DNA from: Escherichia coli
Lineage (GTDB): Bacteria > Pseudomonadota > Gammaproteobacteria > Enterobacterales > Enterobacteriaceae
DNA length: 64,000 nt
Assembly: GCF_046105845.1 (NCBI RefSeq)
Contig: NZ_CP151004.1
Strand: one strand, 5' to 3'
The first letter of the stretch is position 1; each line of letters starts with the position of its first letter. The notes under the pieces are model-generated. The model did no database searches, was not told the DNA's origin, and saw only the letters and a program-made list of their open reading frames with translations. Shown piece by piece: positions 5,248 to 44,980 of the stretch. The translations under genes and the position numbers were made by a program.

Positions 5248-7134
5248 CTACTCTTCCATCGCCTGGCGGATCTGATCCAACGACGCAGGATCATCAATGG
5301 TCGTCAGATCCCCAGGATCGCGTCCTTCACAAATCGCCTGGATCGTGCGGCGCAGCATTTTTCCGGATCGCGTTTTCGGCAATTGCGAGACAAACCAGAC
5401 GTGCGCCGGGCGACCAAAGTTGCCAATCTGGCTGTCCACCAGCGCCATAATCGCCTTCTCTTGCGAATGCGCCACCTCGCGGTCTTCCAGACTGTCGCTC
5501 TCTTTCGGAATGACAAACGCCACCGCCACCTGCCCTTTCAGCGCATCTTTCACCCCAACCACCGCCACTTCGGCAACGCCCGGATGACTGGAGATACTCT
5601 CTTCAATCTCGCGCGTCCCCAGCCGATGCCCGGCAACGTTAATCACATCGTCAGTGCGCCCGAGAATAAAGTGATAACCGTCAGCATCGCGGATACCCCA
5701 GTCAAAAGTGGCGTACACCGGACGGGAAAACAGCGACCAGTACGTCTTCACAAAGCGGTCGTCGTCGCCCCAGATGGTCTGAATACAGCCCGGCGGCAGC
5801 GGCCCTTCTACCACCAGCATCCCTTTCTCGTTGACGCCACACGGTTCGCCGGTGACTTCATTAAGCAACTGCACGTTATAGCCATACATCGGCACGCCGG
5901 GGCTTCCCAGACGCGTCGGCCTGTCGTCCAGACCGCGAGCAATCGCCATAATCGGCCAGCCGGATTCGGTCTGCCAGTAGTTGTCGATGACCGGCACATC
6001 CAGCGTATTGCTCACCCAACTGGCGGTCGGCTCGTCCAGCGGTTCTCCAGCCAGATAGAGCACTTCCAGCGACGAGAGATCGTGTTTGCGAATTTCAGCG
6101 GTAGGGAATTTTTTCAGCACGCGTATGGCGGTCGGCGCTGAGAACATGCGGCTAACCTGATATTTCTCGACGATTTTCCACCACACGCCGCAGTCCGGCC
6201 AGGTCGGTAATCCTTCGTAAACGATAGTCGCCATCCCCGCCAGCAGCGGCGCGTAGACGATATACGAATGCCCCACCACCCAGCCGATATCCGAAGCACA
6301 AAAGAACACACCGCCCGCTTTGCCGCCAAAAATGGTGTCCATCGAGGTCGCCAGCGCCACCGCATATCCGCCGACGTCACGCTGCACGCCTTTAGGTTTG
6401 CCGGTCGTGCCGGAAGTGTAGAGAATGCAGGAGGTTTCGTTGGATTCCAGCCACGCCACTGGCACCCGCGCGCCGATGTGTTGATGGCGCAACGACGCGA
6501 AATCGACATCCCGCCCGCTGACGCGCGCCATTTTCGCCAGCCCGCGATCCACCAGTAAAACGTGGCGCGGCTGATGCTGCGCCTGACTTATCGCATCGTC
6601 GAGTAATTTTTTATAGGGAATGATTTTGCCACCGCGCGCTCCGGCATCAGCCGAGACAATCAGCACCGGTTTAGCGTCATCAATTCGCGCCGCCACGCTG
6701 TGCGAGGCAAATCCCCCAAACACCACCGAATGAATAGCGCCAATGCGCGCGCAGGCCAGCAGGGTAATATGCGCTTCGGCAATCATCGGCATATACACCA
6801 GCACCCGATCGCCACGCTGCACGCCCAATGAACGCAACATTGAGGCCACCGCGTTCACTTCGTCATGCAGCTGACGAAAGGTAAAGGTGCGCTCTTCTTC
6901 TGTTTCCGAAGAGACGGCAATCAGCGCCAGCGCCTCTGGCTGTTTCTCCAGCCAGCGGTCGATAGCGTTGTGGCACAAGTTGGTTCGGCCTTCACAAAAC
7001 CAACGGGCAAACGGCGGATTGCTGTGATCAAGCGTTTGCGTAAAGGGCGTCTGCCAGTCAATACGCCGGGCCTGCTCGGCCCAGAACTTCTCCGGTTCGT
7101 TAATCGAACGCTGATAAAATTCGCTAAAAGACAT
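5248..7134 (-). CDS. prpE: Propionyl-CoA synthetase
   Basis: 628 aa acyl-CoA synthetase (AMP-forming) with ATG start; last gene of prpBCDE. Confidence 0.95.
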   Translation of the reverse strand: MSFSEFYQRSINEPEKFWAEQARRIDWQTPFTQTLDHSNPPFARWFCEGRTNLCHNAIDRWLEKQPEALALIAVSSETEEERTFTFRQLHDEVNAVASMLRSLGVQRGDRVLVYMPMIAEAHITLLACARIGAIHSVVFGGFASHSVAARIDDAKPVLIVSADAGARGGKIIPYKKLLDDAISQAQHQPRHVLLVDRGLAKMARVSGRDVDFASLRHQHIGARVPVAWLESNETSCILYTSGTTGKPKGVQRDVGGYAVALATSMDTIFGGKAGGVFFCASDIGWVVGHSYIVYAPLLAGMATIVYEGLPTWPDCGVWWKIVEKYQVSRMFSAPTAIRVLKKFPTAEIRKHDLSSLEVLYLAGEPLDEPTASWVSNTLDVPVIDNYWQTESGWPIMAIARGLDDRPTRLGSPGVPMYGYNVQLLNEVTGEPCGVNEKGMLVVEGPLPPGCIQTIWGDDDRFVKTYWSLFSRPVYATFDWGIRDADGYHFILGRTDDVINVAGHRLGTREIEESISSHPGVAEVAVVGVKDALKGQVAVAFVIPKESDSLEDREVAHSQEKAIMALVDSQIGNFGRPAHVWFVSQLPKTRSGKMLRRTIQAICEGRDPGDLTTIDDPASLDQIRQAMEE

Positions 7135-38654: not shown

Positions 38655-39735
38655 GTCGTGATGTGAACTGACTCAGGAACCTATCAGATTGAGAGTTACC
38701 GTTCTACTATGAGGACCGAATCCTTATATAAAACACTGAGGTAACTCTCATGCTTCATCGTGACAATCTCGCCAGCAAATTCTAAGCTGACTTGCTCAAT
38801 CTGGCTAATGAAGGTGCTATGGATACACAGATAAACCACAGGTGAAATGCCACTCAGCTTAAGAATCACGCAGCTAGTGTTCCTGGCTATGGTTACTTGT
38901 TCACTCTCGCTCACGGTTAGCATATACGAAAACGGTTCTTGTAACGAGGACAAAAATAAGTCAGACCAAAACCACATGGAGCTTTAAACACGGCTCGTAT
39001 AATTTATTAGCAGCGATTTATTTTTACTCTTCTTTAATTAATCATCATGCTTAAATATTTTTTAGCACACGATTATCGCTTCACTAACATTTTAGTTTAC
39101 ATTGATTCCCAATTGACAATAAAAAATTGTTAATAAGTTTTTGCGAAAAATAAAAAGTGTTGAAATACTCTCCAGTAAACGAATGCAAAATAAACAAACT
39201 AAGGTTTACAAAAAACAAAAACTATTCAAAAGAATATTTTTAATTTATTAGCAGAGTCCATTAACAATGGTTTACTCACGAACAGAAAAGTAAAGAACAC
39301 CTTGCAATAATATGTATTTATAAATTCATATCATTGATATTAAACTAATCTTACTTTCTACCCTCCCAACTTCATACACCAAAAAAACAAAGTAAAATCA
39401 ATTATATACACAACAAGGCAATCTCAAAGGAAATAATATTAAATATCTCAAAACTAATAAAAATTACTAAGACATTAGACGTAACACACATCCCACACGC
39501 CCTGTAGCTCATAGCTTTTATATTTATTTTCTCACATCACTGTAGATAAAAACACGCATTAAAAATGACTTGTAGAAAAGCTGCACAATAAATAGTTCAT
39601 ATTTAGTCTGTTGCGTAGAACTACTATTCAAAAAATCTTATTAATGAGATAATGAGATTACATCGATAACGTTCTGATTGCAGGCATACTTATCTGGGTG
39701 TGCCTCTCTTTTTTTACAACTGTACACGGTGGCGT

Positions 39736-40299
39736 ATGACGAGAAAATATCTCACACAGGATGAAGTCTACAGGCTGATGGATGCAGCCCAGAGCATGTC
39801 CTTTCCTGAAAGAAATCGCTGTCTGATTATGATGGCTTTCATTCACGGTTTTAGGGCCAGTGAACTTCTTGATTTACGTTTATCCGATATTGATGCATCT
39901 GGAAAACAACTTAATATTCGGCGTATTAAAAATGGTTTCTCGACAACACATCCTCTTCTTCCTGATGAATATAATTTGATCAAGTTGTGGCTTAAGCAGA
40001 GGAAGTTAATTGAAAACGGAGTTGAAGGAGACTGGCTTTTTCTCTCCCGGAAACGCCGCCCTATCAGCAGACAACATTTTTTTTCTATCATTCGTGAGGC
40101 TGGAAAACGTGCAGGATTAGCTGTAAAAGCACATCCTCATATGTTACGTCATGCCTGTGGTTTTGCTCTGGCTGACAATGGTGTCGATACCCGACTACTT
40201 CAGGATTATCTGGGTCATCGAAATATTCAGCATACTGTCAGATACACAGCCAGTAATGCTGCTCGTTTTAAAGGGGTGTGGAAAAAAAAGCCTCGTTAA
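39736..40299 (+). CDS. Tyrosine site-specific recombinase, FimB/FimE-like
   Basis: ATG at 39736 gives about 187 aa MTRKYLTQDEVYRLMDAAQ...; C-terminal catalytic region HMLRHACGFALADNGVDTRLLQDYLGHRNIQHTVRYT contains the R-H-R-Y tyrosine-recombinase signature, and size and sequence resemble the fim-switch recombinases; gene is visibly AT-rich. Possibly the ipuA homolog (unverified). Confidence 0.85.
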   Translation: MTRKYLTQDEVYRLMDAAQSMSFPERNRCLIMMAFIHGFRASELLDLRLSDIDASGKQLNIRRIKNGFSTTHPLLPDEYNLIKLWLKQRKLIENGVEGDWLFLSRKRRPISRQHFFSIIREAGKRAGLAVKAHPHMLRHACGFALADNGVDTRLLQDYLGHRNIQHTVRYTASNAARFKGVWKKKPR

Positions 40300-40311
40300 A
40301 ACAGTACCTTC

Positions 40312-40327
40312 TGATTCAAAATGTCAG
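40312..40327. repeat. Left inverted repeat of candidate invertible element
   Basis: TGATTCAAAATGTCAG; exact reverse complement occurs at 40574-40589. Confidence 0.85.
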
Positions 40328-40573
40328 ATTCCTACGTTTTCCTCAATTCTTCCATAAAAAAACAGCCCATTCAATTAAATAAAACACATAACATGTTGAT
40401 ATTTCTAGCTAAAGTAAAATAACCCCATGATTTGAAATGATTAATCACAAAGGTCATACCAGTGATTAACTTTTGCTCATATTGTTAAATAGCACAAAAT
40501 TAAAAACAATAAAAATCAAACAAATTAGATTTATATTCCAAGAAAATTAAATATTCAGGCTATTAAACAAAAC

Positions 40574-40589
40574 CTGACATTTTGAATCA
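40574..40589. repeat. Right inverted repeat of candidate invertible element (inside a 31 bp perfect palindrome at 40571-40601)
   Basis: CTGACATTTTGAATCA; the surrounding AACCTGACATTTTG-A-ATCAAAATGTCAGGTT is a perfect palindrome, so this end carries the repeat in both orientations, like paired recombinase half-sites. Confidence 0.85.
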
Positions 40590-40628
40590 AAATGTCAGGT
40601 TTTGTAGCAATGGCGTGGACGAGTCTGA

Positions 40629-41423
40629 ATGAAGAAGCCTCTGGTTATTATCAGTGCCTGTCAGTTCACCAGGCTGGCACTGGAGTCTCTCATCCCAACG
40701 GACAGGTATCTCGTGCGGGTGTACAGCAACGTCACTACAGAGGTTGAATTCATTTTAAAGACCTCCTGTGGCTACCTGTTAGCTGATATCCCTTCGCTTC
40801 CTTCGGGGGAGTTGGTTCTTCTGGCTTGTCTTGTCCGCTTGCGGAGTGATGCCGGGCAATGGCAGGTCTGCCTGACCGGTGACTCCGACTGGTTCGATAA
40901 TGCTCCTGCTGCAAGTCTGTATAACGGCTTCCCACGCATCGGCACCATGCTGACAGCGAGTCGTTATCAGAATCAAATTATCCGCTGGTTACTACGTCCT
41001 TTGCCCGGCGATATGAGTGATTTCTGGCTCCTGACTGCACGGGAGTTGAGCGTGCTTAAGATTCTGATGCAGGGCATGAGTTTCAGTGAGATTGCCCGTT
41101 ATGAACAACGCAGTTCAAAGACCCTGCATGCGATTGCCACACGGGCATTAATGAAACTTGGACTGGGAACTCTGAGCGATTTCAGGCTGCTCTATACGGG
41201 ATGCGGTGACAGCAGAGTGAAACGGAATATACGGCTACATGCAAGATATGTCGGACAACATTCCGCTCATCGACTCACTCAGTATATGCAGAACATGGTA
41301 TCCGGAATTCTTTATCCAGAGAAAGTTGTCGTTGGTGAATCAATAAATTCTGACGCCATATCCGGAAAAGTACTTTCCGGACAAAGAAAAAATATGTCTA
41401 AAAAAAGACCAGGATTGTTATGA
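40629..41423 (+). CDS. LuxR-family transcriptional regulator (C-terminal HTH)
   Basis: 264 aa ORF with ATG start; LuxR-type HTH LTARELSVLKILMQGMSFSEIARYEQRSSKTLHAIATRALMKLGL, closely similar to the HTH of PdeL in this window; no recognisable receiver domain. Confidence 0.8.
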   Translation: MKKPLVIISACQFTRLALESLIPTDRYLVRVYSNVTTEVEFILKTSCGYLLADIPSLPSGELVLLACLVRLRSDAGQWQVCLTGDSDWFDNAPAASLYNGFPRIGTMLTASRYQNQIIRWLLRPLPGDMSDFWLLTARELSVLKILMQGMSFSEIARYEQRSSKTLHAIATRALMKLGLGTLSDFRLLYTGCGDSRVKRNIRLHARYVGQHSAHRLTQYMQNMVSGILYPEKVVVGESINSDAISGKVLSGQRKNMSKKRPGLL

Positions 41424-41522
41424 CACAGCAGCGTTGTTACTACCCCCCACTGCGGCGCATACGGACTCGCTACAGTGTAGGAGCCAAAATATTTCTACTG
41501 CTCTGGGCTGCAGGATTGGGAG

Positions 41523-41576: not shown

Positions 41577-42338
41577 ATGCGTTTCGTTCTTTTCTGTCCC
41601 TCAGGAATTGTACCAGCGCAGTTCGCAGCTCTATCAACCGGTTCTGTCGGCAATGTTACCTGCATCGGAACAGAAGAGGAGTTACGCAATAAATTGCGGC
41701 ACAGGCCACAGAGTGTCGTGATATCGGCAGGGCGACCTGCCGAATGCGCTGAAATGTGGTTCCGATTTTATCGGGATCACTCATTCGTGGTGGTGTTGTG
41801 CGTCGCGCCCTTTTTTCTGCCACCGGATGTGAGTATTTCTGGCGTTCTCAAAAACCTGAGGTTACTGAAACCAGGAATGTCAGTAGAGCGTGTCATCAGT
41901 ATTGCAAATGCCTCTGGTGGGTTTTCAGGACTGAAACATGCAGAAAGCTTGCCAGTTATGGACAGTTACTCTGTCTTTATGAAAGAGGTGAATAACCGCA
42001 CAAAGACAATCGTCATGTCAGAACGCTTCCCGGAAAAGCAAAAGAAGGTGTTGTCGTTACTTCTTGCCGGACACAGCTGGGAATACAGTGCGCAATTTCT
42101 CAAAACGGGGATAAGACAGATATGGCTTACCGAGCAGTCGCTAAAAAAGCGTTGGGGAATACCGGACAGCATGTCATTGCGGGAAGCCCTGCTGCTTGGC
42201 AGCAATAAATTTCACGGTGATGGAAACGCATTGGAAACAACGAATGCCATGACATTGCGTGAAAACGGAAATACCAACAGGTATTCCGTGGTGGTAAATG
42301 CAGGGACGCTGGCTTTATCTCTGCATAAATATAAATAA
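41577..42338 (+). CDS. Putative transcriptional regulator with LuxR-like C-terminal HTH
   Basis: 253 aa ORF with ATG start preceded by GAGGGAAGG; HTH-like segment EKQKKVLSLLLAGHSWEYSAQFLKTGIRQIWLTEQSLKKRWGI; AT-rich. Confidence 0.65.
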   Translation: MRFVLFCPSGIVPAQFAALSTGSVGNVTCIGTEEELRNKLRHRPQSVVISAGRPAECAEMWFRFYRDHSFVVVLCVAPFFLPPDVSISGVLKNLRLLKPGMSVERVISIANASGGFSGLKHAESLPVMDSYSVFMKEVNNRTKTIVMSERFPEKQKKVLSLLLAGHSWEYSAQFLKTGIRQIWLTEQSLKKRWGIPDSMSLREALLLGSNKFHGDGNALETTNAMTLRENGNTNRYSVVVNAGTLALSLHKYK

Positions 42339-42379: not shown

Positions 42380-44980
42380 ATGAAAAACAGTAAGGCATTT
42401 TACCGCAGCGCATTAGCAACAGCTATTGTTATGGCTCTTTCTGCCCCAGCATTCGCTGCTGATAACGCGGTATCAACTACACCGGTTACATTGGATAAAG
42501 ATAAGACAACTCTGGATCAAGATGTTGTTATTAACGGTGATAACAAGATTACAGCCGTAACAATTGAGACGTCAGATTCAGATAAAGACCTTAATGTTAC
42601 TTTTGGCGGTCACGATATTACCGCCGCATCAACGGTAAACCAAGATTTCGTTGAAGGTGTAAAAGTTAGCGGTGACAAAAATGTTGTGATTAATGCTACA
42701 GGCTCCACCATCACAGCTCAAGGTGAAGGCACCTATGTCCGGACTGCAATGGTCATTTCTTCAACAGGCGATGTTGTTGTTAATGGCGGTAACTTTGTTG
42801 CAAAAAATGAAAAAGGTAGTGCGACAGGGATATCTCTGGAAGGGACCAAAGGAAATAATGTAACGCTCAATGGCACAACCATAAATGCTCAAGGTAAAAA
42901 TGATTCGAGCAACAGCTCTACGGCAATTTTTGCTCAAAAGGGTAGCGTATTGGATGGGCATGGCTTTAGCGGTGATGCAACCGACAACATTACCCTTGCT
43001 GGCTCAAATATTATTAATGGCCGGATTGAAACAATACTTATTGCTCAGGAGAATACGGGAACTCATACAGTCAACCTGAATATTAAGGATGGCTCAGTAA
43101 TTGGGGCGGCTAATAATAAACAAACAATTTATGCCTCTGCTTCGGCACAAGGAGCAGGTTCAGCAACGCAAAATTTAAATTTATCTGTCGCCGATTCAAC
43201 CATCTACTCTGATATCCGTGCCCTTTCTGCAAGCGAGAATTCAGCCGGTACCACAACAAATGTAAACATGAACGTTGCCCGCTCTTACTGGGAAGGTAAT
43301 GCTTATGCTTATGCTTATGCTTATGCTTATGCTGATGACGATAAAGCGAGTAGTAATCTGAATATAAATCTTTCCGATGGCTCAGTCTGGAAAGGAAATG
43401 TTGCGGGTAATACGACTACTGGCAGCACCGGTACTACAGAAAACCAGTCAGCAACCGTAAGTCTGTCTGATTCCACCTGGAAAGGTAACGTGGGTGACGG
43501 TCTGGATGGTGGTGCGCGAGTCACGCTGAAAAACTCCAGCTGGACTGGTGATGTCAGCAACGCCAAAACGGCTGTTGTTCTGACGGATGGTTCTGTGTGG
43601 AATGGTGCCATTAACAGCAATCCTGTTGCAGGAAGTCATGCAGTGGCTGCTGCCGGCAGCACTGATGCAGGTACTTTGACTCCATCTACGTTAGCCGGTC
43701 AGACAGTTGCACTTGCCGGCTCCACCTGGAATGTTACCGGTGATTCTTCTGTTCTTGGCGTCACTGCTGTAAACAGCACCATCAGTGTGAAAGATGCCTC
43801 CCTGACAACTCAGGTTCTTTCTGCAAAAGACAGCAATCTTGTTGTTGATGCAGGTACAACCAATGCTCTGAATGTCACAGGGAAAGCTACCGGTAATGTG
43901 ACAGTTTATAACGCTGGTACCGTAGACTTGAAAGATGCAAAAACAGCATTCATTACTGTTGGTGAAGGCAGTGACCTGAAAGCCACAGGCACAACGGAAG
44001 GTGGTCTGTATCAATATGACCTGACACAGGGAGCTGATGGTAACTTTTATTTCGTAAAAAACACGCATAAAGCATCCAACGCCAGCTCCGTGATTCAGGC
44101 AATGGCAGCTGCTCCGGCTAACGTCGCTAATCTGCAGGCTGACACGCTCTCCGCCCGTCAGGATGCTGTCCGTCTGAGCGAAAATGACGAGGGTGGCGTA
44201 TGGATTCAGTACTTTGGCGGTAAACAGAAACATACCACCGCAGGAAATGCATCCTATGACCTGGATGTAAACGGTGTAATGCTGGGTGGTGATACCCGCT
44301 TCATGACTGAAGATGGTAGCTGGCTGGCCGGTGTGGCGATGTCTTCTGCGAAAGGTGACATGACTACCATGCAGAGCAAAGGTGACACAGAAGGTTACAG
44401 CTTCCACGCTTACCTGAGCCGCCAGTATAACAACGGTATCTTCATTGATACTGCTGCACAGTTTGGTCACTACAGCAACACGGCAGATGTTCGCCTGATG
44501 AATGGTGGCGGTACCATCAAAGCTGACTTTAACACCAATGGTTTCGGTGCGATGGTTAAAGGCGGTTACACATGGAAAGACGGTAATGGCCTGTTTATTC
44601 AGCCATATGCCAAACTGTCTGCGCTGACGCTGGAAGGTGTGGATTATCAACTCAACGGCGTGGACGTTCATTCTGACAGCTATAACTCTGTGCTGGGTGA
44701 GGCCGGTACGCGCGTGGGTTATGACTTCGCTGTGGGCAACGCGACCGTTAAACCTTATCTGAATCTGGCCGCACTGAACGAATTCTCTGATGGCAACAAA
44801 GTCCGTCTGGGTGATGAGTCTGTCAATACCAGCATTGACGGTGCAGCATTCCGCGTGGGTGCAGGTGTACAGGCTGATATCACCAAAAACATGGGAGCAT
44901 ATGCTAGCCTTGACTACACCAAAGGTGACGACATTGAGAACCCGCTACAGGGTGTAGTTGGTATCAATGTGACCTGGTAA
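42380..44980 (+). CDS. Autotransporter (type Va) adhesin-like protein
   Basis: ATG at 42380 preceded by GGAG; N-terminal signal peptide MKNSKAFYRSALATAIVMALSAPAFA; passenger with repeated S-x-W-x-G-N/D motifs; C-terminal beta-barrel translocator ending ...GVVGINVTW. Track start 42347 is a TTG. Possibly the upaE homolog (unverified). Confidence 0.85.
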   Translation: MKNSKAFYRSALATAIVMALSAPAFAADNAVSTTPVTLDKDKTTLDQDVVINGDNKITAVTIETSDSDKDLNVTFGGHDITAASTVNQDFVEGVKVSGDKNVVINATGSTITAQGEGTYVRTAMVISSTGDVVVNGGNFVAKNEKGSATGISLEGTKGNNVTLNGTTINAQGKNDSSNSSTAIFAQKGSVLDGHGFSGDATDNITLAGSNIINGRIETILIAQENTGTHTVNLNIKDGSVIGAANNKQTIYASASAQGAGSATQNLNLSVADSTIYSDIRALSASENSAGTTTNVNMNVARSYWEGNAYAYAYAYAYADDDKASSNLNINLSDGSVWKGNVAGNTTTGSTGTTENQSATVSLSDSTWKGNVGDGLDGGARVTLKNSSWTGDVSNAKTAVVLTDGSVWNGAINSNPVAGSHAVAAAGSTDAGTLTPSTLAGQTVALAGSTWNVTGDSSVLGVTAVNSTISVKDASLTTQVLSAKDSNLVVDAGTTNALNVTGKATGNVTVYNAGTVDLKDAKTAFITVGEGSDLKATGTTEGGLYQYDLTQGADGNFYFVKNTHKASNASSVIQAMAAAPANVANLQADTLSARQDAVRLSENDEGGVWIQYFGGKQKHTTAGNASYDLDVNGVMLGGDTRFMTEDGSWLAGVAMSSAKGDMTTMQSKGDTEGYSFHAYLSRQYNNGIFIDTAAQFGHYSNTADVRLMNGGGTIKADFNTNGFGAMVKGGYTWKDGNGLFIQPYAKLSALTLEGVDYQLNGVDVHSDSYNSVLGEAGTRVGYDFAVGNATVKPYLNLAALNEFSDGNKVRLGDESVNTSIDGAAFRVGAGVQADITKNMGAYASLDYTKGDDIENPLQGVVGINVTW
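43301..43330 (+). repeat. Tandem hexanucleotide repeat (GCTTAT)x5 inside the autotransporter gene, encoding (Ala-Tyr)5
   Basis: Five perfect GCTTAT units followed by a degenerate GCTGAT; translated as NAYAYAYAYAYADDD in the passenger domain. Confidence 0.9.

Follow-up and report, generated by a model that had tools for sequence, protein, structure and literature searches.

The 278-bp element at positions 40312-40589 of the window, by which we mean the whole 64-kb stretch of Escherichia coli DNA that was analysed, is almost certainly the hyxS phase switch, in which the recombinase IpbA (FimX) inverts the element and in doing so sets the expression of hyxR. hyxS is already known, having been published in 2012, and the finding in the window is thus a rediscovery.

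Genes of the locus and its match to hyxS

An earlier note on this DNA had described perfect 16-bp inverted repeats around about 246 bp of AT-rich DNA, and this description is confirmed: the left repeat (IRL, 40312-40327) reads TGATTCAAAATGTCAG, the right repeat (IRR, 40574-40589) reads CTGACATTTTGAATCA, which is the exact reverse complement of TGATTCAAAATGTCAG, and the 246-bp invertible interior between them (40328-40573) has a G+C content of 25%. The placement of this segment between the stop of a recombinase gene at 40299 and the start of a regulator gene at 40629 likewise matches the RefSeq annotation of a collinear genome. The upstream gene, ipbA (also fimX or hbiF; 39736-40299, plus strand, RefSeq coordinates from the collinear genome), encodes a tyrosine-type DNA invertase of 187 aa that scores 251.6 bits against the NCBIfam model NF007370 (“tyrosine-type DNA invertase”, cut-off 221) and has all of the catalytic residues R40, H135, R138, H161, and Y170; PF00589 (tyrosine recombinase) is recorded for every listed IpbA homolog. 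It is the single recombinase gene at the locus, and IRL lies 13 bp past its stop codon.

Downstream of the element, hyxR (40629-41423, plus strand, RefSeq) encodes a LuxR-family regulator of 264 aa with 97% identity to HyxR of UTI89 and a Pfam GerE helix-turn-helix domain (PF00196) at residues 135-181 (E = 3.9e-6). It is followed on the same strand by hyxA (41577-42338, RefSeq), whose 253-aa product is 97.6% identical to UTI89 HyxA and gave no Pfam or NCBIfam match and no recognised domain, and by the long allele of a hyxB/upaB-type autotransporter (42380-44980 from the RefSeq start, plus strand, 866 aa) that bears a TIGR01414 barrel domain. The autotransporter is 76% identical over the alignment to HyxB of UTI89 (765 aa) and is not named HyxB by RefSeq. 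Within it, the hexamer ATGCTT is repeated 6.5 times (43299-43337) and encodes (AY)n; with this repeat in frame, the length of the autotransporter could vary but not its phase. A scan of the whole 64-kb window against Rfam returned no match.

The window is collinear with the O169:H41 chromosome, in which the gene order is cynS … betTIBA-ipbA-hyxR-hyxA-autotransporter-ykgH-ykgGFE-rclRABC-fdeC, and UTI89 shares the order betA-ipbA-switch-hyxR-hyxA-autotransporter-ykgH. This is the bet-ykg interval expected for PAI-X, which Phan et al. 2013 describe as made up of fimX and hyxRAB, with hyxB equivalent to upaB (PMC3789825). Between the betA stop and the ipbA start (38657-39735, ~1.08 kb) no gene is annotated in the collinear RefSeq record, and in strain C6 a hypothetical pseudogene with a frameshift lies between the same two genes; this stretch presumably marks the left edge of PAI-X.

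A megablast search with positions 39600-41500 matched 1,903 of 5,426 complete E. coli genomes, nearly all of them annotated with ipbA and then hyxR, and the RefSeq note for IpbA gives HbiF and FimX as synonyms. FimX/hyxR of UTI89 had been one of two candidates named in the earlier note, which had also proposed a comparison with that strain, and this candidate proved to be the right one: IpbA is identical to UTI89 FimX at 187 of 187 amino acids, the downstream genes are named hyxR and hyxA by RefSeq, and the switch with its flanks is identical at 376 of 381 positions, the repeats being conserved without change. The interior has 98% identity and is oriented in the same way with respect to the genes. 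The five differences are at 40474, 40477, 40492, 40493, and 40569, the first four of which fall within 20 bp inside the element. As summarised from Bateman & Seed 2012 in PMC6083910, hyxS of UTI89 and CFT073 adjoins fimX, is bounded by 16-bp inverted repeats, and is inverted by FimX only, with inversion controlling hyxR. For both the exclusivity of FimX and the control of hyxR by inversion we rely on this literature.

The other candidate was the CFT073 switch ipuA-ipuS-ipuR-upaE, or a locus closely related to it. The architecture is similar, as ipuS too combines a Fim-family recombinase beside an AT-rich element with a LuxR-type regulator and an autotransporter, and ipuS is also invertible by FimX. 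It has, however, 7-bp repeats, an element of 260 bp, one repeat within ipuA, and both ipuA and ipuB adjacent (PMC6083910), whereas the window has 16-bp repeats, an IRL that lies past the stop codon, and one recombinase gene; moreover, ipuS has no hyxA-like gene, and at the DNA level it shows no similarity to the interior of hyxS. When the switch served as the query of a sensitive blastn search, only hyxS orthologs were returned; this result, together with the ipbA/hyxR annotation and the identity with UTI89 FimX, leaves the ipu assignment with practically no probability.

The likeness to fimS that the earlier note had drawn, of an ON/OFF switch beside a FimB/FimE-like recombinase, is supported at the level of mechanism. 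At fimS, which is also a substrate of FimX/IpbA, a tyrosine recombinase (FimB/FimE) inverts a promoter-bearing element of ~300 bp. fimS differs from the window locus in its 9-bp repeats, its 314-bp element, and its position between fimE and fimA (PMC11294581), it controls the fimbrial operon fimA-H, and half-site similarity is reported to be poor (PMC6458436). The window element was accordingly rejected as fimS itself, given the different repeats, size, and neighbouring genes.

Inversion at the repeats and their conservation

For the census of orientations, a flipped query was built in which only 40328-40573 was reverse-complemented, and the 5,426 complete E. coli genomes were searched. The window orientation was found in 1,778 genomes and the flipped orientation, at a threshold of at least 80% coverage, in 16, ten of which matched across the full query length at 96.9-99.3% identity. 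Aligned with flipped APEC O18, the window matches without a difference as far as the inner edge of IRL, cannot be aligned through the interior, and is identical once more from IRR onward. The opposite orientation, which the earlier note had proposed seeking in other strains, thus occurs in natural isolates with its breakpoints at the repeats, and these 16 complete genomes indicate that hyxS, at the level of the species, inverts exactly there. In experiments on UTI89 and CFT073, an inversion signal at hyxS was seen by whole-genome sequencing only under FimX overexpression (PMC6458436).

Chance or a structural role such as that of a terminator, in a segment that does not invert, would be an alternative origin of the repeats. 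Allowing up to two mismatches, the 16-mer TGATTCAAAATGTCAG has three occurrences in the 64-kb window (both arms and a direct copy matching at 15 of 16 positions at 40583-40598), against 0.06 expected from shuffled sequences, and a count of three was not reached in any of 100 shuffles. With the 16 exact flips and the experimental literature also against it, we give this explanation next to no credence.

Six of the 16 flipped genomes, namely MEI005 (locus L002, 5001-5604) and five similar genomes (matches H42-H46), have ipbA cut to a 114-nt 3' fragment beside IS66 and IS21 elements; they appear to be naturally locked, being left without a local recombinase. The flipped query matches MSB2_1A (match H33, NZ_LR890410.1) in two pieces over ~1.5 kb with an IS26 transposase under the match, which suggests an IS26 insertion inside or next to a flipped hyxS. 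In APEC O18, the GG(G)AAAAAAAAG tract before the ipbA stop (window 40279-40290; locus L001, ~6169-6180) is longer by a single G, and the annotated ipbA of this strain (612 nt) therefore continues across IRL into the flipped element; this frameshift falls past the catalytic Tyr170, and recombinase activity may be kept.

The repeats can be resolved further into two-armed sites with a 7-bp centre, which read AAAACAGTACCTTC / TGATTCA / AAATGTCAGATTCCTA on the left and ACAAAACCTGACATTT / TGAATCA / AAATGTCAGGTTTTGT on the right. The sequence AAATGTCAG is common to three of the four arms, the outer left arm being degenerate. The right repeat had been described in the earlier note as embedded in a perfect palindrome of 31 bp (40571-40601); the palindrome stands, but its real extent is 39 bp (40567-40605; 19 + 1 + 19). 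Its outer arm at 40583-40598, TGAATCAAAATGTCAG, is the direct 15/16 copy of IRL noted above. Since the two inner arms change places on inversion, the palindrome is perfect only in the window orientation, and it is slightly shorter in UTI89 hyxS, which has C at 40569 where the window has A. As a speculation by analogy with fimS, where flanking sequence biases switching by FimE, this asymmetry of the arms may bias the direction of switching. A second palindrome inside the element, TTAATCAC-N13-GTGATTAA (40441-40469), had been put forward as an accessory-protein site. It is present but not significant: an equivalent is found in 24% of Markov-1 random sequences of matched composition, and it is absent from the diverged MEI005 lineage of the same switch (locus L002). 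We rejected this candidate as chance-level and not conserved.

Relatives of the switch were reached by protein search with IpbA: recombinases of Salmonella matched at 72% identity, and a rare paralog in E. coli matched at 81%. The Salmonella STM0716 or T1-antigen switch (PMC11294581) has the repeat core TGATTCAAAA in common with hyxS and, like hyxS, a HyxA-like gene downstream, and its element is of similar size, with 257 nt between 16-nt arms; it differs in that only 9-10 bp of the repeat are perfect, and in controlling a polysaccharide biosynthesis cluster, where hyxS has a LuxR regulator and an autotransporter. In the E. coli paralog, the arms are TGGTTCAAAATGTCAGAT and its complement (TGGTTC.../...GAACCA), an A-to-G change being matched on both arms, and the right arm is once more part of a palindrome, TATCTGACAT-N11-ATGTCAGATA. 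The paralogous module (loci L010-L012, 4001-8567) comprises the recombinase, an invertible-looking element with an interior of 200 or 241 nt, ORFs of 242 aa and 248 aa, and an autotransporter, and it adjoins acetolactate decarboxylase and synthase genes. The interiors of the Salmonella and paralog elements cannot be aligned with that of hyxS; ends that are conserved around interiors free to change are what a recombinase substrate predicts.

We therefore favour inversion on the grounds of the identity with UTI89, the intact and identical recombinase, the two natural orientations, and the conserved repeat core. IpbA (FimX, HbiF) would pair the two 16-bp inverted repeats and exchange strands within them, and the exchange would reverse the 246-bp interior; one orientation would then send transcription into hyxR, and probably onward through hyxA and hyxB/upaB, and the other would not. 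The expected outcome is heritable ON/OFF heterogeneity within the population. Inversion of hyxS is reported to be independent of IHF.

Orientation of the window and control of hyxR

The window probably represents the OFF state of hyxS. We infer this because its orientation is that of 99% of the assemblies and because, at the homologous Salmonella switch STM0716, the orientation that almost every deposited genome carries proved by experiment to be OFF (PMC11294581).

Predicted promoters bear on this assignment in both directions. The best orientation-dependent hit of a position-weight scan was a weak sigma-70-like candidate, TTGAAT-17-AAGAAT (8/12; 40346-40374, minus strand), which as a prediction would face ipbA in the window orientation and hyxR after inversion. 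In UTI89, a 9/12 candidate, TTAACT-16-AATAAT, points at hyxR when the element is oriented as in the window, and this is at odds with the assignment of the window to OFF; the -10 hexamer of the candidate, AATAAT, reads AATAGC in the window owing to two substitutions. A consensus promoter scan of the window found no sigma-70 candidate, and across both orientations the consensus and weight-matrix scans returned nothing above chance, with hits that partly conflict. The consensus scan was also run on flipped APEC O18, the Salmonella switch, and the paralog switch, and none of the hits rose above chance. The sole promoter-like site that the consensus scan returned in UTI89-type (APEC O18) sequence has AATAAT as its -10. 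Nor is a promoter position transferable from ipuS or the Salmonella switch, the interiors of which are unalignable with that of hyxS.

The switch could also be present but effectively static in the source strain, through a promoter weakened by the four clustered substitutions relative to UTI89 (40474, 40477, 40492, and 40493), two of which change AATAAT to AATAGC, or, for instance, through poor expression of ipbA, and the predominance of one orientation in 99% of assemblies would fit. An assembly, however, records just the state that prevails in a culture, neither the recombinase nor either repeat is damaged or differs from its counterpart in the active UTI89 system, and the candidate promoter in which the two substitutions fall, the sole one from the consensus scan, is itself at chance level. 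We consider a static switch improbable.

A somewhat less improbable alternative, though still an unlikely one, is that inversion acts mainly by remodelling the hyxR leader or by affecting read-through from ipbA, and not by carrying a promoter. With the element oriented as in the window, a hairpin with a 19-bp stem, completed by the right repeat, lies 23 nt before the hyxR start codon, and this palindrome, folded as RNA, has an energy of -26.4 kcal/mol (z = -6.6), as against -19.4 kcal/mol after the flip, when the stem is shorter. That no strong promoter is predicted within the element, and that the paralogous switch too has a palindrome around its right repeat, would also be in keeping with a role in the leader. 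Against this, no T-run meeting terminator criteria follows the hairpin, and a recombinase site with two arms will also look palindromic; furthermore, the related ipuS has a transcription start mapped inside its element (PMC6083910), and the literature describes hyxS as an inversion of the hyxR promoter region (PMC3789825; PMC8777976). Following this literature, we retain the inversion of a promoter-bearing segment as the probable reading.

Recurrent loss of the element and its meaning

Besides its two orientations, the locus occurs in a switchless form. An exact 271-bp deletion between IRL and its direct copy in the outer palindrome arm was found in 89 of the 5,426 complete E. coli genomes, counted with a 64-nt junction query at E <= 1e-18 that only deletion alleles can satisfy. 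The count is in agreement with the recovery of the interior from 1,801 genomes versus that of both flanks, at >=80% coverage, from 1,874. Two matches (H28 and H29, 87% coverage in two pieces) considered as inversions were rejected as such, as they proved to be 271-bp deletions. The junction ACCTTC-TGAATCAAAATGTCAG-GTTTTGT is common to the six deletion genomes that were retrieved, and in the deletion alleles (loci L006 and L013-L018) hyxR starts 58 bp past the ipbA stop. A search of the genome contigs with IpbA returned one locus only. In a cryptic Escherichia species, the element is absent as well, and a single copy of the repeat joins ipbA to hyxR.

Compared with switch-bearing UTI89 over 1,110 nt of flanking sequence, the deletion alleles differ at 0 positions in BCE049, 5 in SA186, 12 in APEC E956, and 40 in C6, and the cryptic species differs at 53. 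As the deletions sit on unrelated flank haplotypes and not in one clade, excision is recurrent. The centre of the junction is TGATTCA (T-type) in 18 of the 89 genomes and TGAATCA (A-type) or a variant in 71, and the two junction types therefore imply at least two deletion events. An initial impression that junctions are always A-type (7 of 7 at first), which would have favoured site-specific cleavage, was refuted by the 18 T-type junctions.

It is possible, though we hold the idea only tentatively and at less than even likelihood, that hyxS is a three-state element at which IpbA occasionally aligns the sites directly and excises the 271 bp irreversibly. The proposal stems from the palindromic right site, which also presents the direct 15/16 copy of IRL, and it would explain the identical deletion on unrelated haplotypes, the occurrence of both junction types, and the cryptic species. 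RecA-independent slippage between these direct repeats of 16 bp would explain the deletion just as simply. No description of hyxS excision was found in the literature outside the primary hyxS and PAI-X papers, and excision by way of the direct copy that the right palindrome creates may be unreported.

What the census and the recurrent excision add to the knowledge of hyxS is modest, and the tally over 5,426 genomes, of 1,778 in the window orientation, 16 flipped, and 89 excised, is of possible use to specialists. HyxR, the regulator under the control of the switch, has been tied in the literature to tolerance of nitrosative stress and survival in macrophages and, together with hyxA, to O-antigen chain length and serum resistance (Phan et al. 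2013, PMC3789825); it has recently also been tied to transient phage resistance, a 2025 study having reported inversion at hyxR/hyxS in phage-selected clones of Mt1B1 (PMC12361893). For a switch of this kind, recurrent excision suggests that lineages can quit phase variation for good.
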